Assembly (NCBI GenBank): GCA_035280845.1
Contig: DATEFB010000002.1
Location: 125,183-189,182, forward strand
Direction: 5' to 3'
Source: Candidatus Saccharimonadales bacterium
Lineage (GTDB): Bacteria > Patescibacteriota > Saccharimonadia > Saccharimonadales > EFPC-124
Length of the DNA: 64,000 nt
Part shown: positions 31,597 to 48,500 of the stretch, piece by piece
Layout of the letters: every line of letters starts with the position of its first letter
How positions within the stretch are numbered: the stretch's first letter is position 1
Notes under the pieces: model-generated
Seen by the model: the letters and a program-made list of their open reading frames with translations, nothing else
Told to the model about the DNA's origin: nothing
The model's database searches: none
Program-made: the position numbers and the translations under genes

Positions 31597-34500
31597 TTAG
31601 CTAATTGGATGGCCCCACCCGGTAAAGCCTTCGCCCGTAAACAATACGTCGGCGAGGTAGCCGTTAGAGCCGAATGATCCGTTTGGATACGCTGGGCTGG
31701 GTGACGGATTGGCGAATTTGCCGTTCAGCGTGCCTGGAATGCTGGCAGGTGCCGTGAGGTCCCCGTTAGTAACGCCACTCGAGGCGAACTGCCCTGCGAT
31801 CGAGACGTAGCGGTCTAATGTCCAGACGGCGGCAACGTATTTTGAGCCCGAAGTGATAGTAACGGGTGTGGTAAATAGTACCTCGTACCAGCCGGATTGG
31901 GTATTGGTGAACGTTGCGCGGGCTAGTTCGGTCCCGGTTGTGTTATTGGTCCAGCTGTATAGCAAACCAATAACCGGTGCGTCTGGTAGGGTGCCCGGGA
32001 AATGCCAGCGAATACCGTGGATTTTGCCGCCCACCACAGCCGTAAACACAGTCCCCAGTGTGTAGGTAGTGCCGTCGCTGCCGTCGTAGACCGTCGGGGC
32101 AAGTGTTTTAAAGATGGTCTGGTATGCAGGGCGGTCGGGTGCCGGGAACCCGTAGGCTGCGGCCGACGCGGTTGCGCCAGGATCAACCAGGGCGGTTGTA
32201 GCGACGTTGGCTGCGGTGCTGACCAGGGTAGTGGGGGCCATCCCCATGTCTTTCAATAAGTTCAGCATAGCCTGTTGGGTGGTGATGTCTACTGCACCGC
32301 TACTGTCGAACTGGCCCCGCCTGAAGCGGCTCAACCCAATAGCGAACCGCCATGATCCGGCGTTAAACACGTAGGCGCCCGAGCTAGCCATGTACATCGT
32401 CAGGCCAAAACGGTACACCCCATGTTCGCCGTAACTGTTGCCGTTGTAGTTTGCGGCAATGCCGCGCAGCGCGAAAGGCTGCTGAGACAAATACACCAGG
32501 TTTGATGGCGTAGAAGGCTCTTCCCATTTCACATAATCCCATTCGCCGCCCACAGTCCGGAAGGGCAGTGTCGTGCCCGGCGAAATGTAGAATAGTCCAG
32601 CGAACGCCTGCGGGTTGCCGAATTGCGCCGTTGCCGAGTATTGGTGCGCGCCCTGGGTGACTGCGCCGTTAGTATCCATTATTGAGGCAGATGCCCAAGG
32701 GCCGCCCCCGGCCGCGTTGCTCGATGTTGTGCGGTGGGTTAATCCCGAGCCTGCGGTCCAGCTGGTTGTCTTTTGCGAGCCGGTGCTGTCGCAGTCACCG
32801 AATACGGCTACGGCCCACCGCGTTGTGCCAGCATTAGAGATCGAGCGGGTGGTGTGGGTTGTTGCGCCGCTAATGTCTTCTAGAATAGAGGTTTCGGTAT
32901 CCTCCCAAACGGCATTGCCGTAGGCGACCATGGTAGCCGACGCGTTGCACGAGCCTTGACCCAGCCAGCTTATGACGTGCGGGCTTGTGCCTGTCGATAC
33001 AGAATAGCCGGTCAGGAGCGCCATGGATTGGTTGCCGCCAATGCTCGTCACACGGACGCGGCGTAATGGCAGCGCGACGTTACTAAGGCCACCTGGGCTC
33101 CCCGTGAATGTAACCGCAACTACCAGAAGGTCGCCAACCTGGGTACCCGATGGCTGGTTGATAGTAATCTGAGTGCCGGGGGTGTTTAGCTCGGCGGTCG
33201 CGGCTCCCCTATAGGTAATAGTGAGTGCACTGCCAGCAGTGGTATTGCGCCAGATCGGTTTCGTACGATAGGTGTTAGGGATTGCTGTTGAGTCTTCGAA
33301 CGTACCGTTCCCAATGAACCATTGCCCGGTCATGCCGCTTTCTGGGCGGCGGAAAGTGTTATTAACGCCCCCTACGACAGCGCGACTATCGCGCCAGGTG
33401 CCAGTGTAACTGACGGGGTCGTATTTGGTTGTGTTGTCGTAGCCTGTTGTGTCGTGCGAATCTTTGTAGCAGATCATATTGCGGCGATCGGTATCGGCCG
33501 GGTCGAACCGCACGCGCCACAGTGATGTGTTGCCGCTTAGGAAAATAAGGTGCGTTCCGGCGTCGCGGGCGTTTTCGTAGGCATCGCGCAGGTTGTCGGT
33601 CCAATATTCGCTGTGGCCGTGAACGACCGCGACTTTATAGCGTGAAGGGATGACCGGGTTTTTGTCCATATCGATCGAACTGTAATAGTCGATGTCGTAG
33701 CCATTTGCTTCGAGGAAGTTCACCAGCGATGAAGGCGAATCCCAATAATACGTGATGTTGTTGGAGTATACGGTAGACATTGGCCGGTCGTAGGACACCG
33801 CAAACGCGCGTGTGTTTATGCCACCCGCAGGTGCCTGGCCGTAAATACTGCGGCCAGTGTAACCGCTAGTGCCAGTGCCAAAGTCGTTGACTGAACCCCA
33901 GAGGTTGTATGCCTGCCAGGTCAGTTCCGTGGTGGGCACCAGGATTTTATCGACGCGGGACGCAGGCACAGTGGCTGGACGGACGACAAAGATGCCTTGC
34001 GCCTTGGCTCCCGAGATGTCTGTGCGGGCCGCGTTATAAAAGTAAATACCCGGAGTCATATCTGCGGGGATCGTCCACGACGCCGTTGTTGACCAGGCGC
34101 AGACTGTTCCACCGAACGAATTGACGGTTGGTGCAGGCTGCACAGCAGGAGACCCCGTAATGGTGATTTTTTTGCGCGCACCAAAGACGGCATGGTTGTA
34201 AAAACCGGCGCGGTACACGACAACCTCGAAAGCTGCATTGAACGAATGAATTTTAAAATTAACAGTAGAGCCAGGAGCGTACGAGGTGTGGTCGGTGTAT
34301 CCCGAAATAACATCGCTAACCCCAGTGCCATACCAGGTGCCTGCAAGGTTGCCGGGCAGGGAGTTTTCGGCAGCGATTGGGTTGGCATAGGGGTTTACGA
34401 AGGTCGGCGTGCCTGGCGAGAGGTCTTCGTACGCCCACACGACAGATTGGTGTTCGGATGATGGGTCAACGCGTGTGGTTTGTGCGTTGAACGTTGCGCC

Positions 34501-35079
34501 CGATGCTTTATCGGCGACACCAATCAACGAGTGGTACTTCGTTCTAGATGTGTCCATATTGTTATATTCACTAACATAAATCTTGCCGAATGGCTCAAAG
34601 CCCCAATGGCCATCGGATGGACCTGGCGCTCCAGGCTGGCCCGAGGTAAACATAGCAAGCACTACGGCTGCTGTTGTGGTAGTAATGGTGCCTGTCATGA
34701 GGCGGCCTTCGCTGTTCACGCTCGTATTGCCGCCAGCAGCGCCTTCGTTGGCACCGGCAATAAAGTTGCCTAGCGCACCGGGTGCGAATTCAAAAATGTA
34801 GCCATCCACGTTCTCAGGGCCATTCAGCGTAATCTGAATTGTTGTTGTGCCGCCGCCAGCATCTACGATATCTTGCCCGCTCACTTCGCGGCTGTTGAGC
34901 GACGACGTGCGCTTTGTAAAGTTGGTCCCGCCGACTCCAAGCTTAGCCGTAATGATCGCGCCACCTCCACCTACGCACACTAGTTTGGCACCTGCGGTGG
35001 TGGCGGGTATGGTCACATTGAACGAAGCCGTGGAAGTCGTGGGGCTTTTCCAGCGAGTGGCGTTAAGTAACTGGGACAT
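31597..35079 (-). CDS. 1160-aa multidomain protein with N,N-dimethylformamidase-beta-like (DUF6605-type) core and C-terminal DUF4082-like domain
   Basis: LVPTTELTWQAYNLWG ... FAVSYDRPM ... HGHSEYWT ... IFLSGNTSLWRVRF. The C-terminus has YTLGTVFTA..GKIHGIRWHFPG ... GWYEVLF..PVTITSGSKYVAAVWT. Starts 3 nt after the upstream stop. Confidence 0.75.
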   Translation of the reverse strand: MSQLLNATRWKSPTTSTASFNVTIPATTAGAKLVCVGGGGAIITAKLGVGGTNFTKRTSSLNSREVSGQDIVDAGGGTTTIQITLNGPENVDGYIFEFAPGALGNFIAGANEGAAGGNTSVNSEGRLMTGTITTTTAAVVLAMFTSGQPGAPGPSDGHWGFEPFGKIYVSEYNNMDTSRTKYHSLIGVADKASGATFNAQTTRVDPSSEHQSVVWAYEDLSPGTPTFVNPYANPIAAENSLPGNLAGTWYGTGVSDVISGYTDHTSYAPGSTVNFKIHSFNAAFEVVVYRAGFYNHAVFGARKKITITGSPAVQPAPTVNSFGGTVCAWSTTASWTIPADMTPGIYFYNAARTDISGAKAQGIFVVRPATVPASRVDKILVPTTELTWQAYNLWGSVNDFGTGTSGYTGRSIYGQAPAGGINTRAFAVSYDRPMSTVYSNNITYYWDSPSSLVNFLEANGYDIDYYSSIDMDKNPVIPSRYKVAVVHGHSEYWTDNLRDAYENARDAGTHLIFLSGNTSLWRVRFDPADTDRRNMICYKDSHDTTGYDNTTKYDPVSYTGTWRDSRAVVGGVNNTFRRPESGMTGQWFIGNGTFEDSTAIPNTYRTKPIWRNTTAGSALTITYRGAATAELNTPGTQITINQPSGTQVGDLLVVAVTFTGSPGGLSNVALPLRRVRVTSIGGNQSMALLTGYSVSTGTSPHVISWLGQGSCNASATMVAYGNAVWEDTETSILEDISGATTHTTRSISNAGTTRWAVAVFGDCDSTGSQKTTSWTAGSGLTHRTTSSNAAGGGPWASASIMDTNGAVTQGAHQYSATAQFGNPQAFAGLFYISPGTTLPFRTVGGEWDYVKWEEPSTPSNLVYLSQQPFALRGIAANYNGNSYGEHGVYRFGLTMYMASSGAYVFNAGSWRFAIGLSRFRRGQFDSSGAVDITTQQAMLNLLKDMGMAPTTLVSTAANVATTALVDPGATASAAAYGFPAPDRPAYQTIFKTLAPTVYDGSDGTTYTLGTVFTAVVGGKIHGIRWHFPGTLPDAPVIGLLYSWTNNTTGTELARATFTNTQSGWYEVLFTTPVTITSGSKYVAAVWTLDRYVSIAGQFASSGVTNGDLTAPASIPGTLNGKFANPSPSPAYPNGSFGSNGYLADVLFTGEGFTGWGHPIS

Positions 35080-35082
35080 GCG

Positions 35083-35706
35083 TTAAATGGTTCTACTTAC
35101 TACTATGGCAACTGTCAGATCTGAGCCGGCTGTACTTGAGCCGATTTGGTCAATATCGACCGTCAGGTAGTCGCCAGCAACCAGAGTAGTCACATCTGGT
35201 GTCGCGCCAGGCCCGCCTGCGTTTGCGCTTGCGGCAATTGTTGGCCTGTTCGCCTGGTTGGTATAGATTGTTGTGCCATTCTTATGTACATCCAGGATCA
35301 GGCTCGCGCCGGTAGGAGCGGTGCCAACCATGAGTCGTGTGCCAACAATTGTGTAGCTGCCATCAATAGGGAATCGCATTGTGCCGGTAGTGACACTGAG
35401 TGCACCTTGTTTGGAATATGCGGGCAACGAAAGCACGGCATTATGCGTATGGCCATCGACATAGGACTTTGTGACCGCGTGCCCTGCAGCAGTCGGCGCA
35501 GGAACAACGGGGGAGGCGCTGAATGTCTTTGTACCGGTGATCGTTTCGACACCACTGTTGTGTACAACCGCCGAATCTTCAGCTTTGGTGGCGATTGTCC
35601 CGGAGGTTTTGAGGCTGCCATCGGTATTGTGCTCGACGCTCAAAAAATCATTAAGGATATCACCCCATGAATTGTTGTCGCCGCCGGGAGTAGGTAGCCG
35701 TGCCAT
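35083..35706 (-). CDS. phage-tail-fibre-like protein
   Basis: N-terminal MARLPTPGGDNNSWGDILNDFL and ETITGTKTFSASPVVPAPTAAGHAVTKSYVD motifs, which I recall from phage tail-fibre proteins. The N-terminus is paralogous to that of ORF 46416-46655. Confidence 0.65.
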   Translation of the reverse strand: MARLPTPGGDNNSWGDILNDFLSVEHNTDGSLKTSGTIATKAEDSAVVHNSGVETITGTKTFSASPVVPAPTAAGHAVTKSYVDGHTHNAVLSLPAYSKQGALSVTTGTMRFPIDGSYTIVGTRLMVGTAPTGASLILDVHKNGTTIYTNQANRPTIAASANAGGPGATPDVTTLVAGDYLTVDIDQIGSSTAGSDLTVAIVVSRTI

Positions 35707-42465: not shown

Positions 42466-44247
42466 ATGAATCAACCCAATACCCGAAACTTCTGCATTAT
42501 CGCGCATATCGACCACGGTAAGTCTACGCTGGCTGACCGACTTCTTGAGATTACGGGTACTGTCGACAAGCGCGACATGAAAGAGCAGCTTCTGGACCGC
42601 ATGGACCTTGAGCGCGAAAAAGGCATCACTATTAAGCTACAGCCAGTGCGCATGGAATATAAGGGGCATGAGCTGAATCTTATTGATACGCCTGGCCACG
42701 TCGATTTCAGCTACGAAGTGTCGCGCAGCCTTGAGGCCTGCGAGACCGCGCTGCTTGTTGTAGACGCCACCCAGGGCATCCAGGCGCAGACACTCGCGAA
42801 TGTTTACTTAGCATTGGCGGCTGACCTGACAATCATCCCAGTCCTGAATAAGATCGATTTGCCTGCCGCGGACGTTGAGCGAGTGAGCCACGAAATTATA
42901 ACCTTGCTTGGCTGTAAGCGCGAGGAGATTCTGGAAGTGTCCGCCAAAACTGGCCTGAACGTCGAACAAGTCCTGGACCGGATTGTAGAAGTGGGCAACC
43001 CACCCCTGGGCGACACTAATGCGCCTTTGCGGGCCCTTATTTTTGACTCAATGTACGATGATTACCGCGGCGTCGTGCTGTATGTGCGCATCGTCGACGG
43101 TGAGCTTAAAAAGAATGACGGCATCAGGATGATGGCCGCCGAATCATCGGGCCTGGCGCTCGAAATTGGCCACCTTTCCCCTGTTATGAAACCTGACCCG
43201 ACGCTTAAAACCGGGCAGATCGGCTATATTGTCACCAACTTCAAAACAGTGGCGCAGGCACGAGTGGGCGACACAGTAACAATTACTGCCAAGCCGGCTG
43301 CCTCGGCGCTACCTGGCTACAAGGAGGCTAAGCCCTTTGTGTATGCTGGCATATTCCCTGTTTCAAACGAGGAGTACCCGGCGCTAAAAGACGGCCTCGA
43401 AAAGCTAACCCTTAACGATGCCGCCCTGCAGTATGAGCTCGAAAACAGCCAGGTGCTTGGCCACGGGTTCCGCGTTGGGTTCCTGGGCCTGCTGCATATG
43501 GACATTGTGCGTGAGCGGCTGGAGCGCGAGAACAATCTTGAGCTTATTATTACCAATCCTTCTACCGACTATCAGGTAGAGATGCTCGACGGCTCGATGG
43601 TAGAGATCCAGAATGCTGCTGACCTGCCAGATGTCATGAAGATCAAGGAAATCCGCGAACCGTGGATTAAGGGCGAGGTCGCCTGTCCCAACAGCTATGT
43701 CGGTTCAGTGTTGCAGCTGATTGTGCAGCAGCGTGGCAACCACAAGAAGATTGATTTTATTGATGACCAGTTGGCGCTCATCAATTTTGAGGCACCACTC
43801 GCCAACATGTTGACCGACTTTTACGACCAGCTAAAAAGCCTGACGAGCGGATATGGGTCATTTAACTACGAACTCGCAAGCTACCGGGCCGAAGACTTGG
43901 TACGCTTGGACTTTTTGGTCGCGAGTGAGCGGGTGGACAGCCTGAGCCTAATGGTGCACCGCAGTGAATCTATACGAGTTGGCCGGGAGATTGTGAGTAG
44001 GTTGAAAGACATTATTCCAAAGCAGTTGTTTACTGTCGCCGTGCAAGCGGCAATCGGCGGCAAAATTATTGCCCGCGAAGATATTCAGGCGAGTAAAAAA
44101 GATGTCACCGGCCATTTGTACGGTGGTGACGTCAGCCGCAAAAAGAAGCTGTGGGCCAAGCAAAAAGCAGGGAAGGCACGCCTCAAGAAATTCGGCCGGG
44201 TAGAGATACCCAGCGAAGCCTTTACCGTACTGCTGAAGCGCGACTAG
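42466..44247 (+). CDS. lepA: translation elongation factor 4 (LepA)
   Basis: IRNFCIIAHIDHGKSTLADR, DTPGHVDF, NKIDL, and the conserved LepA C-terminal domain. Confidence 0.95.
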   Translation: MNQPNTRNFCIIAHIDHGKSTLADRLLEITGTVDKRDMKEQLLDRMDLEREKGITIKLQPVRMEYKGHELNLIDTPGHVDFSYEVSRSLEACETALLVVDATQGIQAQTLANVYLALAADLTIIPVLNKIDLPAADVERVSHEIITLLGCKREEILEVSAKTGLNVEQVLDRIVEVGNPPLGDTNAPLRALIFDSMYDDYRGVVLYVRIVDGELKKNDGIRMMAAESSGLALEIGHLSPVMKPDPTLKTGQIGYIVTNFKTVAQARVGDTVTITAKPAASALPGYKEAKPFVYAGIFPVSNEEYPALKDGLEKLTLNDAALQYELENSQVLGHGFRVGFLGLLHMDIVRERLERENNLELIITNPSTDYQVEMLDGSMVEIQNAADLPDVMKIKEIREPWIKGEVACPNSYVGSVLQLIVQQRGNHKKIDFIDDQLALINFEAPLANMLTDFYDQLKSLTSGYGSFNYELASYRAEDLVRLDFLVASERVDSLSLMVHRSESIRVGREIVSRLKDIIPKQLFTVAVQAAIGGKIIAREDIQASKKDVTGHLYGGDVSRKKKLWAKQKAGKARLKKFGRVEIPSEAFTVLLKRD

Positions 44248-44495
44248 CTAGCCGTGCTTGCAGCTGCGTTCTGGCGGCGCTTGCGCAACCAACGCTTGGT
44301 AAGCAAAATAGCGCTCGCGACAACTAGTGAGATGCCCAGGAACACGGGCAACAGTATGTCGTAGCCGGTGTCTGCAAGGCCGCCACCCGATGGGCTTTCG
44401 GCGCCACAAGTGCTGTTCTGGTACGTACCTGCGCCGTACACGCCACAGTTGTAGTCCGCTGCAAAATTGAATGTGTGTTTGATAATACTCATCAC
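44244..44495 (-). CDS. small protein with C-terminal LAxTG-type cell-wall sorting signal
   Basis: 83 aa ending in LADTG, a hydrophobic helix (YDILLPVFLGISLVVASAILL) and a basic tail (TKRWLRKRRQ). No clear N-terminal signal peptide. Confidence 0.5.
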   Translation of the reverse strand: MMSIIKHTFNFAADYNCGVYGAGTYQNSTCGAESPSGGGLADTGYDILLPVFLGISLVVASAILLTKRWLRKRRQNAAASTAS

Positions 44496-44578: not shown

Positions 44579-44782
44579 GTGAATCAATTTGGAGACATCC
44601 TCGGCATAGGTGCGCCAGAACTGTTGATCGTCCTGGCTATCGTCTTGCTGTTGTTCGGAGGCAAAAAGTTGCCAGAACTATTCAAGAGCGCAGGTACATC
44701 TGTACGTGAATTACGCAAAGGTTTGAGCGGCGATGAAGATGGGAAACGCAAAGTTTCAAGCACCAGCGCCGACAACCAATAG
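44579..44782 (+). CDS. tatA: twin-arginine translocase subunit TatA/E
   Basis: GAPELLIVLAIVLLLFGGKKLPEL motif. GTG start after GGGAG. Confidence 0.85.
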   Translation: MNQFGDILGIGAPELLIVLAIVLLLFGGKKLPELFKSAGTSVRELRKGLSGDEDGKRKVSSTSADNQ

Positions 44783-45953
44783 TACAGCCACGCAAGCCCA
44801 GAGCGACCAATCGTTACCGACTTTCCTTGACCATGTGCATGAACTCCGGCGGCGATTGTTTTGGGTGGTAGGTATTGTTCTTGTGGCATCGAGTGTAGCG
44901 TACAGCTTCCTCGGCACCATTTTGGACGTTCTTACCGCTCCGCTCGGTGAGCAAGGCCTGTTCTATCTGACGCCCGGTGGGGGGCTCAGTTTTTCATTTA
45001 AACTGTGCGCCTACGTGGGTGTGTTAGTTGCGGTTCCGCTGATTATGTACCATTTGTACCGCTTTATGGAGCCGCTCATGGGGAACTGGCGGCGCTCAAC
45101 TATTTTCTATGTGGGCCTGTCGACTATTTTGGCGGTGTCCGGGGTGCTTTTTGCATATTTCGTTAGCTTGCCAGCTGCCATAAAGTTTTTGACTGGGTTT
45201 AACGTCAATCACGTCCAGGCAATGTTGACCGCTGACTCGTACTTATCTTTCGTTGCTACCTATTTGCTAGGGGCAGCGCTTTTGTTCCAGATTCCCCTCC
45301 TCCTGTTGATCATTAACACTATGACGCCCCTGAAGCCAAGCAAGCTTATGAAACTGCAAAAGTTTGTGATTGTCGGGGCGTTTATCCTGGCTGCAATGAT
45401 CTCGCCAACGCCAGACATTATGAACCAGGCCTTTCTTGCGATTCCAATCATCGCCATGTACCAACTCGGCATTCTTATGGTGTGGGCGCAAAACAGTATG
45501 CGGCGGCGCAAAGAGGAGAAGCTGGCTGCTCGGGCAGGGGTGGACCAGCAGAAGGTTGAGGATCAGGAAGTGCAGCCTGTTCCGGCGCCGATTCTGGCCC
45601 AATTCGCCGAGCATCATATGCGACCAGCAGCCGTCCAGAAGCCTGCGGTAGTACCTGTTATGGCGCAGCGTCCTGCGCAGAGCGCGTTGCAGCCTGTCGT
45701 GCAGCAACGCATGCAACCTGCTCAAGTTCGATACACTCTGCGTCCTCAGGCGGCACGGCGCGTATTTACTGATATCGCCCCACGACGTGTTCAGCCAGGG
45801 TTGCGGCCTGCTCCCGTCCAGGCGCAGCCAATGCCTGTCCGACGACCTGCTACCATACAGTCCGCCCGCACCGCCCCACGATTGTCTGTGCCCGCCAGGA
45901 GTATCGATGGATTTTCGTCATATCGGCCTGCAAATGCTGCAGGAACCTCTTGA
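44733..45953 (+). CDS. tatC: twin-arginine translocase subunit TatC with ~150-aa low-complexity C-terminal extension
   Basis: FLDHVHELRRRLF N-terminus and six TM helices, then a P/Q/A/R-rich tail. The start overlaps the tatA 3' end and is uncertain. Confidence 0.8.
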   Translation: MKMGNAKFQAPAPTTNSTATQAQSDQSLPTFLDHVHELRRRLFWVVGIVLVASSVAYSFLGTILDVLTAPLGEQGLFYLTPGGGLSFSFKLCAYVGVLVAVPLIMYHLYRFMEPLMGNWRRSTIFYVGLSTILAVSGVLFAYFVSLPAAIKFLTGFNVNHVQAMLTADSYLSFVATYLLGAALLFQIPLLLLIINTMTPLKPSKLMKLQKFVIVGAFILAAMISPTPDIMNQAFLAIPIIAMYQLGILMVWAQNSMRRRKEEKLAARAGVDQQKVEDQEVQPVPAPILAQFAEHHMRPAAVQKPAVVPVMAQRPAQSALQPVVQQRMQPAQVRYTLRPQAARRVFTDIAPRRVQPGLRPAPVQAQPMPVRRPATIQSARTAPRLSVPARSIDGFSSYRPANAAGTS

Positions 45954-46017: not shown

Positions 46018-46215
46018 ATGGCAACACCCACACCTATAAACGAGCTTTTGCAAAAACGAATGGACCGCAAGGACTTCTTAAAGCACGTCGCAATGGGCGT
46101 GGCAGTCCTTACTGGCACGGCCGCAGTCGTTAAGATGTTTCGCCCACAACAGCAGGCAAGCATGGGTTACGGCGCTTCGGCATACGGCGGCAACCCCGCA
46201 CTACGCCAGAAGTAA
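46018..46215 (+). CDS. 65-aa protein with Tat-like (RK-variant) signal or anchor
   Basis: MDRKDFLKHVAMGVAVLTGTAAVV resembles S/T-R-R-x-F-L-K plus an h-region. Lies immediately downstream of tatC. Confidence 0.5.
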   Translation: MATPTPINELLQKRMDRKDFLKHVAMGVAVLTGTAAVVKMFRPQQQASMGYGASAYGGNPALRQK

Positions 46216-46232
46216 TACGTTTTATTGATTCC

Positions 46233-46262
46233 AAACGGACAGTCATTCGACTGTCCGTTTTT
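46233..46262 (+). terminator. intrinsic terminator
   Basis: AAACGGACAGTC / GACTGTCCGTTT stem, then a T-run. Confidence 0.65.
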
Positions 46263-46415
46263 ATATAAATTACAACACTCACCTCAAGGGCCTGCTCATT
46301 GTATAGCGAGGGAACCTAGGCTAGCATAATGGCGTCAACCAGTTACATATACGATAAACGGCGCAACCGCGCCGGTCTGTTAGCTGCTGGCTTGCATAAC
46401 ACAAAGGATGGGTAT

Positions 46416-46655
46416 ATGGTACGACTTCCGCAGCCGGGCGGCGATGTAAACACATGGGGTGATATCCTTAATGAATATCTACTCAGGCAGCACAAGCCGG
46501 ATGGGACGCATGTTCTCACCAAGGCCGATGTGGGCTTGGGCAATGCAGACGACACAAGCGATGCGGCAAAGCCAATAAGTACTGCACAGCAGACTGCCCT
46601 CGATGCAAAAGCATCTGTTGGGCAAGCTATTGCAATAGCGGTGGCATTGTCATGA
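46416..46655 (+). CDS. small phage-tail-fibre-like protein
   Basis: ATG at 46416 after AAGGATGGG. MVRLPQPGGDVNTWGDILNEYL is paralogous to the 35706 ORF. VGLGNADDTSDAAKPISTAQQTALDAK is a motif I recall from tail fibres. Confidence 0.6.
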   Translation: MVRLPQPGGDVNTWGDILNEYLLRQHKPDGTHVLTKADVGLGNADDTSDAAKPISTAQQTALDAKASVGQAIAIAVALS

Positions 46656-47563
46656 AACAAATTATCCGCAATTACAGCTTTAATAAGAACGCGGGCACAA
46701 TTACCTTCTCTGATTTTGCAACAATTAGCTTAGACCGGGTATTGCTCGTAACAAATGTCACAGCAAACACCATACTGTACCAATTTAATGAACCGACACT
46801 TGGTGGAACGGCCGCTGGCAATGTACTGACTCTGGTCCGCGCGACAACTGGCATGAACAATGGTGACCGTCTGCAAATCATATATGACAGCGCCGCGGGC
46901 GACCCAACATATGATACACCCACCGTAGCGATGCAGGGGTTGCACCAGACAACACCGCCAAGCCTTACTAACGGGCAGCATGGAGAAGTGCAAGTAGATG
47001 CGCAGGGTAGGCTACTGGTTTCGACCGCGCCGCTCGCTTCGGTTGTCGACTCGGTTACAGCCCAACCCGGTACGGTCACTCGTGTTACTTATTCTGCGGC
47101 CGCCAGTTTTGTGCCTGCGGCAGGTGCTACAGATATATTTGTGCTTGTCGGTAGTACAGCAAAAACTGCCTACGTAACGCGCGTCCTTGTTAGCGGCACA
47201 CAGACCACGGCCGGCAACATAGAGTGTGCACTCATTAAGCGGTCAACCGCCAATACTGGTGGTAGTTTTGTCGCGGCGAATATGATCCCGCACGATTCTG
47301 CCAACCCGTCGGCTGCCATATCTGTTGGCCACTACACGGCGAATCCAACAGTGGGTAGTTCGCTCGGCGCACTTAGGAGGGAGCGTTTGCTTGTTCCGGC
47401 ACTCAGCACTGTCGCGCCGCATGACCACATTCTTTGGGAACTCGAGACAGCAGGACAGGGCATCGCGCTCAAGAATGCCAGCCAGGTTTTGGCGGTCAAT
47501 ATTTTAGGGGCGACGCTGGCTGGTGGCCTCATGTCCGTAAGTGCCGAATGGTACGAGGTGTAG
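46652..47563 (+). CDS. hypothetical beta-rich protein, possible fibre or receptor-binding component
   Basis: Overlaps the upstream gene by 4 nt. The N-terminal IRNYSFNKNAGTITFSDF...LDRVLLVTNVTANTILYQF pattern resembles phage structural proteins, from memory and unverified. Confidence 0.55.
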   Translation: MKQIIRNYSFNKNAGTITFSDFATISLDRVLLVTNVTANTILYQFNEPTLGGTAAGNVLTLVRATTGMNNGDRLQIIYDSAAGDPTYDTPTVAMQGLHQTTPPSLTNGQHGEVQVDAQGRLLVSTAPLASVVDSVTAQPGTVTRVTYSAAASFVPAAGATDIFVLVGSTAKTAYVTRVLVSGTQTTAGNIECALIKRSTANTGGSFVAANMIPHDSANPSAAISVGHYTANPTVGSSLGALRRERLLVPALSTVAPHDHILWELETAGQGIALKNASQVLAVNILGATLAGGLMSVSAEWYEV

Positions 47564-47564
47564 T

Positions 47565-48500
47565 ATGGCGGCGTGGTCAGGCTTAGGGATGAACTATGGG
47601 CATCAGTATCCTAATAATCCATACGACATGCAGCAGGTTGCTGCCGACCTGGATTTTTTAAAGAGTGCCGGCGTGACTCGTTTGCGGCTTGCGTACCCGT
47701 TATGGAACGACAGCGGCACGGCAATCGCGTCATGCCAGGCGCTGGTGCACTATGCGCTCGCCCAAGGGTTTTATGTTATTTGGGGTGTTGTGGCGCAGTC
47801 GCCGGCCAACGCTACGCAGTGGGCGGCGTTCAAGGATTACATAATGGACACTCTGGCACCTTGGGCCCAAGGCTTGCAGAACAGTAATTTTGAATTAAGT
47901 ATTGGCAACGAGGAAGAGTTCCACTGCGATGGTACGACACTTACCATTCCAACGGTTGTGTCGGATCTTGCGGCGTTGGCCACCGCAGTGCAGGGTGTTT
48001 ATACGCATGGGCCGATCTCGTACCAGGCCTCTATTGCTCATCTTGCTCAGTGGCAGTCCAATGGCCGAGGCGGATTGGACCGGATCGGATTCAATTGTTA
48101 TTCGCGCACCCCCGCCGGGGCTGCATTCCAGGCCGCTCTAATACTCGCCGCATTCCCGGGCAGTGGGTATGTGGCTGAGTGGGGGACGGGAAACGGGCGC
48201 TCAGACTTTTCGCAGGAATCGCTATGGACCGATACTATTTATGGCCAGCACAAGGCCTGGCAGGCAAGTGGTCTGCCAGAAGCCTACTATTTTGCTTACC
48301 GTGATGGCAGCTTCGGTCTTCCCGCAGACGCATGGGCAGTAAAGATGACGAATGGGAGCTTTCGGTCGGTTGCACCCTGGTTGCTTGGACTGCGACCTTG
48401 GTTCCTGGGTGTCCCAAATACGCCATTGGTCCGCACGGCGAATGTGGCCCGTGCTGGGCAGTCTGTGCGTGCAGCTAGCGGGCAAAGGCTAATTTTTTAA
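47565..48500 (+). CDS. putative clan GH-A (TIM-barrel) glycoside hydrolase
   Basis: The ATG at 47565 follows the previous stop by 1 nt. Candidate acid/base Glu in SIGNEEEF and nucleophile Glu in GYVAEWGTG. Confidence 0.5.
   Translation: MAAWSGLGMNYGHQYPNNPYDMQQVAADLDFLKSAGVTRLRLAYPLWNDSGTAIASCQALVHYALAQGFYVIWGVVAQSPANATQWAAFKDYIMDTLAPWAQGLQNSNFELSIGNEEEFHCDGTTLTIPTVVSDLAALATAVQGVYTHGPISYQASIAHLAQWQSNGRGGLDRIGFNCYSRTPAGAAFQAALILAAFPGSGYVAEWGTGNGRSDFSQESLWTDTIYGQHKAWQASGLPEAYYFAYRDGSFGLPADAWAVKMTNGSFRSVAPWLLGLRPWFLGVPNTPLVRTANVARAGQSVRAASGQRLIF

Follow-up and report, generated by a model that had tools for sequence, protein, structure and literature searches.

The stretch analysed here, 64,000 nt of a contig from a Candidatus Saccharimonadales bacterium (hereafter the window), carries at 46416-48500 of its forward strand a compact operon of three genes, g1, g2 and g3, which encode a short fibre-like protein, a two-domain beta protein and a protein with a glycosidase fold. 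The anatomy of this operon and the phage ancestry of its parts are well supported, as is its fixation as a component of the cellular chromosome. That it now works as a surface device that binds and cuts glycans, probably those of a host, is a reading that we hold with moderate confidence.

The genes are as tightly packed as an earlier note, made from the sequence alone, had described, with a 4-nt ATGA overlap between g1 and g2 and a 1-nt spacing between g2 and g3, and intergenic distances of 10 nt or less are also found in the operons of five other loci (L001, L004, L005, L007 and L011). All strings quoted in that note were found in the window (MVRLPQPGGDVNTWGDILNEYL, VGLGNADDTSDAAKPISTAQQTALDAK, TITFSDF...LDRVLLVTNVTANTILYQF, GNEEE and AEWG). 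Its third product of 319 aa corresponds to a longer open reading frame (ORF) beginning with GTG at 47541, a start that clashes with the note's own 1-nt gap. We take the ATG at 47565 as the likelier start, giving 311 aa, because a Shine-Dalgarno-like GAGGTG lies 5 nt upstream of it and because the resulting product is 100% identical to a hypothetical protein in the database from a metagenome-assembled genome labelled 'Candidatus Saccharimonadales bacterium'. A terminator-like hairpin between the gene of a Tat-like miniprotein and g1 likely marks the 5' boundary of the operon; it is absent from the output of a consensus promoter and terminator scan, which returned no more sites than in shuffled sequence. 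Since sequence-profile searches of g1-g3 against Pfam, NCBIfam and PDB gave no match, the homologies described below are drawn from PHROGs, tblastn and predicted folds. The features are collected in Table 1.

Table 1. Positions in the window of the operon, its parts and two further features
Feature	Position	Strand	Basis
g1, 79 aa, putative short fibre stub or adaptor	46416..46655	+	ORF, AAGGA site upstream, orthologs
g1 N-terminal motif, residues 1-31, M-x-RLPxPGGDxNxWGDILNxxLxxxHxxDG	46416..46508	+	alignment to the 35706 ORF, profile
g1 phage tail-fibre repeat, residues 36-65, KADVGLGNADDTSDAAKPISTAQQTALDAK	46521..46610	+	PHROG, tblastn
g1 hydrophobic C-terminal tail AIAIAVALS, core [IVL]A[MILFY]A[IV]AL	46626..46652	+	frame scan
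g2, 303 aa, two-domain beta protein, putative fibre tip or glycan-binding subunit	46652..47563	+	AlphaFold2 model, BFVD folds
g2 N-terminal domain, residues 1-85	46652..46906	+	phrog_5838, Sonali gp26
g2 linker, residues 86-144	46907..47083	+	low model confidence
g2 C-terminal jelly-roll-like domain, residues 145-303, exchangeable module	47084..47560	+	homolog mapping, Foldseek
g3, 311 aa, predicted clan GH-A-type (beta/alpha)8 glycosidase, no assignable family	47565..48500	+	AlphaFold2, Foldseek
g3 N115-E116, putative acid/base, GNEEE motif	47907..47912	+	invariant in 20 homologs; after strand 4
g3 E205, putative nucleophile, AEWG motif	48177..48179	+	invariant in 20 homologs; in strand 7
g3 basic C-terminal tail, residues 279-311	48399..48497	+	model confidence <50; conserved pattern
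Terminator-like hairpin, ACGGACAGTC-ATTC-GACTGTCCGT + T-run	46235..46263	+	read directly from the sequence
Second N-motif protein, 207 aa, motif at residues 1-31, upstream of a 1160-aa protein	35083..35706	-	

A fibre stub and its distal partner

The central part of g1 is a phage tail-fibre repeat. Residues 30-70 match 20 PHROG families, mostly of tail-fibre or minor tail proteins (best E 1.1e-13), and tblastn finds the repeat in 695 phage records, mainly from Mycobacterium, Gordonia and Arthrobacter phages; the earlier note had described this motif as common in phage tail fibres, and the repeat is indeed abundant in phage tail proteins. A nearly identical copy occurs in a 793-aa fibre of the phage-like contig L040, which ends in the same C-terminal tail as g1. 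Orthologs of g1 in L001, L004, L005, L007 and L011 are 78, 107 or 194 aa long and share the N-terminus, one or two repeats and the C-terminal tail. The Pfam models BppL_N and DUF5907 stay below significance on g1, and a word-index search with its 40-aa N-terminus returned no candidate. A seemingly full-length match to gp22 of Arthrobacter phage Altadena was rejected, as it covers the internal fibre repeat only and is without the N-terminal motif.

The product of g2 has a high content of Ala (13.2%), Thr (11.9%) and Val (9.6%), as had been noted, and its AlphaFold2 model (predicted local distance difference test, pLDDT, 84.8) consists of two well-defined beta domains joined by a low-confidence linker, in which pLDDT falls to 47-60 over residues 81-140; conservation with L001 nonetheless extends to residue 138. 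A fold search with the whole model retrieved 63 predicted phage proteins from BFVD at E<=1e-3 (best 1.9e-20), and BLAST mapping of 69 homologs resolved two independent modules, residues 1-~140 and 145-303. The N-terminal module resembles virion proteins: residues 2-81 match phrog_5838, 'virion structural protein' (E 3.2e-7), the domain is 49% identical to the N-terminus of gp26 of Arthrobacter phage Sonali (E 6e-18), and it also matches gp181 of phage Atuin and virion structural proteins of cyanophages S-PM2, Syn1 and S-RIM44. The C-terminal module stands alone or at the C-terminus in about 55 other proteins and is present in nine IMG/VR loci; its relatives P0033 and P0066 lie within podophage structural modules, and P0039, on a phage-like contig, combines both g2 domains. 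Against PDB, Foldseek gave only weak matches, to viral jelly-roll coat proteins, and no lectin or carbohydrate-binding module (CBM) identity was assigned to g2. In another setting (L006 6796-9503), a 500-aa protein with the C-terminal module at its end adjoins a protein of 321 aa whose N-terminus resembles that of type IV pilins (GFTIVELLIVIVVIAILAAI).

The tail of g1 and the N-terminal domain of g2 meet at a junction that recurs in phages. Relatives of the g2 N-domain were found in 23 viral loci of IMG/VR, and in 22 of them the gene immediately upstream, encoding a fibre protein that is often collagen-like, ends in a hydrophobic tail (...FVIAMAIAL or a close variant). Among the 1171 stop-to-stop frames of these viral loci, the 22 that end in the tail all stand just before the g2-type gene. 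When the core pattern was loosened slightly for the window, the related loci, Sonali and L040, the tail was found to close one of 859 frames in the window, namely g1, directly upstream of g2, and a single frame in each of L001, L004, L005, L007, L011, Sonali and L040, every time immediately ahead of the g2-type gene; Sonali gp25, which ends DALAFAIAL, directly precedes gp26. The N-termini of the viral upstream fibres differ from that of g1, and the architecture is therefore that of a platform-specific N-terminal anchor, shaft repeats and a common C-terminal tail, followed by a protein with the g2 N-domain. The junction is not universal, as cyanophage S-PM2 p176 is without the tail, and we found no description of its function in the literature searched. 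As a conserved feature of gene order and sequence it speaks for an adaptor or shaft role of g1 and a distal position of g2, in keeping with the adaptor and receptor-binding protein that the earlier note had suggested, and the order of the genes suggests that the g1 tail contacts the g2 N-domain.

The N-terminus of g1 opens onto a much larger family. Its first 31 residues align without gaps to the first 31 of a 207-aa protein encoded on the reverse strand (the 35706 ORF), with 19 of 31 positions identical and a pairwise E of 6e-14, so that the position-by-position alignment drawn in the earlier note is sound; a six-frame regular-expression scan finds these two copies of the motif, here called the N-motif, and no other in the window. 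Beyond it the two proteins have nothing in common, the 207-aa protein bearing a BppL_N fibre motif at residues 46-64 and a C-terminal half that matches phrog_27064. Its gene lies 3 nt upstream of that for a 1160-aa protein (31597-35079; DMFA2_C, DUF4082), and the module they form (31597-35706, reverse strand) is not at the corresponding site in the related contig L003.

A profile built from both window copies matches 6038 clusters (at 50% identity) with E<=1e-3 and 1818 with E<=1e-10, nearly all at residues 1-33, in proteins of 37-1144 aa. What had been described as a small paralogous family thus turns out to comprise more than 6000 clusters that have in common about 33 N-terminal residues only. 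Pfam annotation of 109 top matches finds DUF5907 repeats (23 proteins), BppL_N (11), pectate-lyase-like beta-helix (9), collagen (3), CBM5/12 (2), phage tail repeat (2), HylP hyaluronidase (1), GHL15 (1) and GDSL lipase (1), and no model over the N-motif itself. Judged by these domains, the content of the family is fibre- and depolymerase-like, and on the profile matches it is a large, unannotated family whose members share an N-terminal address and nothing else; this address may serve for docking in thousands of such proteins. Some carriers, being encoded on contigs of the size of genomes of the Candidate Phyla Radiation (CPR; 0.77 Mb and 1.18 Mb), are likely cellular. Two, P0105 and P0131, are longer versions of the 207-aa protein of the window. 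In P0092 (523 aa) three tandem copies of the N-motif precede a GHL15-like putative glycosyl hydrolase domain, from which it follows that the motif is a repeatable unit of about 35 residues and more than an N-terminal tag.

The N-motif is no typical phage fibre N-terminus, an identity that was considered and rejected, as it is rare in known phages and abundant in metagenomic and cellular proteins. Among 50,697 deposited phage records it occurs in six Streptomyces phages, on a collagen-like protein encoded among tRNA genes and outside the tail module. In phage BRock the coding sequence concerned, gp186 with collagen repeats (L009 4791-5738), overlaps a tRNA-Lys gene, and the N-motif in it starts from an internal Met (L009 5001), a hint that the start codon was deposited too far upstream. 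A phage context for the motif, whose absence from phage fibres the earlier note had named as refuting its reading, does exist in the IMG/VR viral contig L038, where an N-motif protein directly follows the tape-measure gene. This 15-kb contig also encodes a major head protein and an integrase and may represent a small temperate phage of a related host; in the stretch L038 3471-6797, the N-motif protein after the tape-measure gene is 207 aa long and 73% identical over residues 1-33 to the 207-aa ORF of the window.

The third gene and its glycosidase fold

The AlphaFold2 model of g3 (pLDDT 82.9, predicted template modelling score 0.82) is a (beta/alpha)8 barrel of eight alternating strand and helix units. 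Foldseek against PDB gave 231 matches at E<=1e-3, and all 50 of those listed belong to glycoside hydrolase (GH) clan GH-A, from families GH5_4, GH158, GH164, GH53, GH113, GH10, GH26, GH157 and GH2, with template modelling (TM) scores of about 0.5-0.6 and 11-16% identity. The glycosidase fold that the earlier note had put up as a test of its reading is thus found in the model, and the glutamates it had picked out in GNEEE and AEWG fall at the canonical positions, E116 just after strand 4 (residues 109-112) and E205 inside strand 7 (residues 201-207). In an alignment of 20 homologs G114-N115-E116 and E205 are invariant, conserved aromatic and glycine positions accompany them, and beside the catalytic residues 23 other columns do not vary.

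By sequence, g3 has no match at E<=1 in Pfam or NCBIfam, and none in PHROG or in PDB sequence and profile searches. Because its modelled fold is that of GH-A and the sequence profiles searched find no family, we describe it as GH-A-type and, by these means, unplaceable in a named family. Membership of GH5 is not claimed, as hhalign of the g3 family against the GH5 enzyme of the syntenic locus L007 gave a probability of 7%. Twenty members were found in 5.8 billion sequences, none of them with a Pfam domain, and on the assessment by Pfam, NCBIfam, PHROG and PDB g3 represents a candidate GH-A family, as yet unclassified, with about 20 members known.

The only relative of g3 in IMG/VR, 36% identical over 280 aa (E 4e-43) and with both catalytic motifs kept, occupies residues 226-495 of a 745-aa ORF whose C-terminus resembles tail tubular protein A; downstream come a gene resembling that of tubular protein B and internal virion proteins that include an SLT domain. 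The closest outgroup of g3 is therefore a tail-mounted phage enzyme, which supports the glycosidase part of the fibre set proposed in the earlier note. At its end g3 has 33 residues of predicted disorder with an Arg at about every sixth position, in a pattern (GNPN..R.....R.....R) kept in 17 of the 20 homologs. The phage relative has its tail tubular domain from this point on, and the basic tail of g3 may be an attachment peptide.

Fixation in a housekeeping neighbourhood

The operon stands among housekeeping genes. Upstream lie those for His_Phos, TilS, FtsH, MurJ, LepA, TatA, TatC and a 65-aa miniprotein, downstream those for a guanylate-kinase-family protein (Gmk), HrcA and GrpE, and no phage gene is found within about 10 kb on either side, so that its placement between tatC with the miniprotein and the kinase/hrcA genes is as the earlier note had it. 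The same site is occupied in five other Saccharimonadales loci (L001/L002, L004, L005 and L011), in the order TilS-FtsH-MurJ-LepA-TatA-TatC-miniprotein-[operon]-Gmk-HrcA-GrpE, and there, too, the fibre repeat of g1 is flanked by these genes and does not belong to a phage tail module; in L007 the operon lies just upstream of tatA. The site is stable down to protein identities between carriers of about 50-70%. Synonymous differences between carriers (pS) are saturated at about 0.7-0.85, and nonsynonymous ones (pN) are 0.11-0.23 for g1, 0.12-0.42 for g2 and 0.17-0.35 for g3, against 0.07-0.27 for gmk and tatC. The G+C content of the operon is 0.547, that of the window 0.538.

The low pN against saturated pS, the shared site and the normal G+C content make a recent prophage or a decaying remnant unlikely, and with housekeeping genes as neighbours a prophage or cryptic prophage was rejected. 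The earlier note's proposal that the set has been kept as a cellular tool draws support from the same synteny, purifying selection and base composition. The operon is nevertheless dispensable in some lineages, as follows from the 500-kb Saccharimonadales contig L003, where a single deletion took tatA, tatC, the miniprotein gene, g1, g2 and the first ~75 codons of g3 and left a 236-aa g3 remnant directly after lepA (L003 8001-8711). The joint loss of tat genes and operon was rejected as evidence of a functional linkage, since it is one deletion that also truncates g3.

Between lineages the cassette has exchanged its distal parts. Residues 1-138 of g2 are kept (54% identity between the window and L001), and the C-terminal part is replaced by an unrelated region of ~300 aa in L001, L004, L011 and L007, a pattern that agrees with the receptor-binding role given to g2 in the earlier note. 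The third gene varies as well: in L007 a PF00150 GH5 enzyme comes after the g1-g2 pair, and in L039 a LamG protein and a GH5_mannosidase come after a g2-type gene that has a degenerate g1 start upstream of it. The occurrence of three different GH-A-type enzymes in the third position argues, from sequence comparison, that a glycosidase is a required partner of the fibre pair and that specificity is exchanged as a unit.

The operon lies beside tatA and tatC in the syntenic loci, and several neighbours deserve a description of their own. The 65-aa miniprotein (46018-46215, forward strand), encoded directly after tatC and conserved at 62-81 aa in six Saccharimonadales loci, has an invariant QKRMDRKDF.KH, in which RK replaces the twin arginine, a hydrophobic GVA.L.G.AA stretch and a GYG..YGG tail; it resembles a signal or anchor of the twin-arginine translocation (Tat) type with almost no mature part and gives a weak match to the Pfam Rieske TAT signal (E 0.04). 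Within the operon and its neighbours this is the only Tat-like signal. TatC itself (44733-45953, forward strand, 406 aa) continues beyond its Pfam domain (residues 33-238) in a low-complexity extension of ~165 aa rich in Pro, Gln, Ala and Arg. After lepA, an 83-aa ORF on the reverse strand (44244-44495) ends in ...GGLADTG, a hydrophobic segment and KRWLRKRRQ, resembling an LAxTG sortase signal; it has no obvious N-terminal signal peptide, and an ORF of 75-79 aa occupies the same position in L001, L004, L005 and L011.

Proposed function and relation to known systems

Based on the above data, we propose that, in a small clade of soil Saccharimonadales, an operon of phage-virion ancestry has settled in the chromosome as a stable component passed on vertically. 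Together g1-g3 would approximate a phage receptor-binding protein with its depolymerase, put to the service of the cell. In this scheme g1 would be a short fibre stub, docking through its N-motif, contributing one fibre repeat and pairing through its C-terminal tail with the g2 N-domain, as in phages. g2 would be the distal subunit, attached to g1 by its N-domain and presenting, at the end of a flexible linker, an exchangeable jelly-roll that binds glycan. g3, as a putative retaining clan GH-A glycosidase with E116 as acid/base and E205 as nucleophile, would cut the polysaccharide that the fibre recognises, and the likeliest target may be an envelope or capsule polysaccharide of the bacterium that carries this epibiont. 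The earlier note's view of a depolymerase-type fibre set used as a cellular tool is thereby supported overall; physical assembly, surface export and the identity of the substrate are the parts of this proposal that we infer.

Several observations weigh against it. The assembly of g1, g2 and g3 is predicted from gene order and the conserved junction, and no description of such a module was found in the literature searched. Signal peptides, twin-arginine motifs and transmembrane segments were not found in any of the three proteins: their first 30 residues are hydrophilic and contain no RR, on which grounds a Tat signal was rejected, and the maximum 19-residue hydropathy stays below 1.8. They consequently have no known route to the surface. 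The proximity of the Tat genes is suggestive for a fibre that folds in the cytoplasm, and no evidence connects the miniprotein with the operon. The fold neighbours of g3, from which its putative activity is read, span beta-glucanases, mannanases, galactanases and xylanases. Finally, the operon is dispensable for Saccharimonadales generally, given the loss in L003 and the rarity of the g3 family (20 homologs in the 5.8 billion sequences, and one of 185,579 GTDB species representatives).

The alternative that survives best, which we nevertheless regard as unlikely, is that the operon handles glycan for the cell itself, either in turnover or remodelling of its own wall or exopolysaccharide or in using environmental polysaccharide as food, with g1 and g2 as carbohydrate-binding accessories and a phage likeness that goes no further than shared domains. 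Patescibacteria are described as having glycoside hydrolases in large number, which supply fermentation (PMC11665869); among the neighbours, MurJ and, in L001, a GH68 gene represent envelope and sugar functions; and where the third gene encodes GH5 or LamG instead, these are carbohydrate-active domains of an ordinary kind. Against this reading, the g1-tail/g2-N-domain junction is present in 22 of 23 viral loci, in which the tail occurs nowhere else, and the closest outgroup of g3 belongs to a phage tail protein; the swapping of distal domain and enzyme would be expected of a device that recognises a variable foreign surface, and no transporter or sugar-catabolic gene is linked to the operon.

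A cassette that serves a virus-like particle has, in our estimate, a slim chance of being the correct explanation. It would supply fibres in trans to a prophage, a tailocin or a particle resembling a gene-transfer agent encoded elsewhere, or, as a decoy or an exclusion factor, counter phages equipped with the same fibre junction. Every part of the operon has virion homologs, the missing export signals would be normal for virion proteins, which are released by lysis, and in L038 an N-motif protein does follow a tape-measure gene. Yet the flanks examined in the 64-kb window and the 20-kb syntenic loci contain no capsid, portal, terminase, tube, sheath, baseplate, integrase or lysis gene, the lepA/tat/gmk/hrcA site is stable at ~50-70% protein identity, which is unusual for phage-linked cargo, and the G+C content is not anomalous. 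A functionless remnant of an old, decaying prophage tail fibre is highly improbable in spite of the phage origin of the parts, the deletion of most of the operon in L003 and the degenerate look of g1 in L039, because six loci have kept the ORFs intact, with pN far below the saturated pS and much like that of gmk and tatC, the 20 g3 homologs show no variation at the catalytic residues or at 23 further columns, and the tight translational coupling is kept.

A bolder extension of the surface-device reading, improbable when taken as a whole, would make the N-motif the docking address of a large undescribed class of fibres and depolymerases, partly cell-encoded, and the operon a trimeric, phage-type fibre organelle with an exchangeable tip and a dedicated glycosidase. 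Folded in the cytoplasm and exported without a signal of its own through the adjacent Tat system, possibly by hitch-hiking on the miniprotein, this organelle would recognise the host polysaccharide and open it locally.

Little is understood of the way in which the ultrasmall, epibiotic bacteria of the CPR recognise a host and breach it; type IV pili have been implicated so far, together with a few predicted adhesins (PMC11623550, PMC11665869). If the surface-device reading is true, the operon would be a testable candidate determinant of host specificity, in the form of a vertically inherited receptor-binding and depolymerase cassette built of phage parts, with lineage-specific swapping of tip and enzyme. 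Three by-products are independent of that reading: an N-terminal motif, so far without annotation, at the head of thousands of proteins that resemble fibres and depolymerases, a conserved and uncharacterised fibre junction (hydrophobic C-terminal tail, then a phrog_5838 N-domain) common to many phages, and a candidate new clan GH-A family of ~20 members with one fusion to a phage tail protein.

Compared with known systems, g1 carries the 'GLGNVDNTSDxxKPVSxAxQxAL' repeat of actinophage minor tail and fibre proteins (PHROG 35419, 8780, 13892 and others) and differs from them in being just 79 aa long with a single repeat, in being encoded among housekeeping genes and in starting with an N-motif that few deposited phage genomes have (6 of 50,697 records). 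The g1-g2 pair has its counterpart in Sonali gp25/gp26, with the same junction and the 49%-identical N-domain, although the phage partners are much larger than g2 (857 aa for gp26, 1095 aa for S-PM2 p175) and have other C-terminal domains. With clan GH-A enzymes such as PbGH5A (GH5_4, PDB 5D9P), BuGH158 (PDB 6PAL) and members of GH164, GH53 and GH113, g3 shares the barrel, the Asn-Glu pair and the strand-7 Glu, whereas its low identity and TM scores and its empty Pfam, NCBIfam and PDB profile searches set it apart from the named families. There are two points of likeness to phage tail-associated depolymerases, given by the g3 homolog inside a podophage tail tubular protein A-like ORF and by the pectate-lyase beta-helix and HylP hyaluronidase domains of N-motif proteins, but g3 is a separate, small, cell-encoded protein beside fibre genes and no beta-helix tailspike. 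R- and F-type tailocins and extracellular contractile injection systems are domesticated phage-tail systems, selected for their benefit to the cell. The present operon departs from them in consisting of a distal fibre and an enzyme only, no tube, sheath, baseplate or lysis genes being seen in the window and the syntenic loci examined, and it resembles them in that phage structural genes would likewise have been fixed in a chromosome to the advantage of the cell that carries them.

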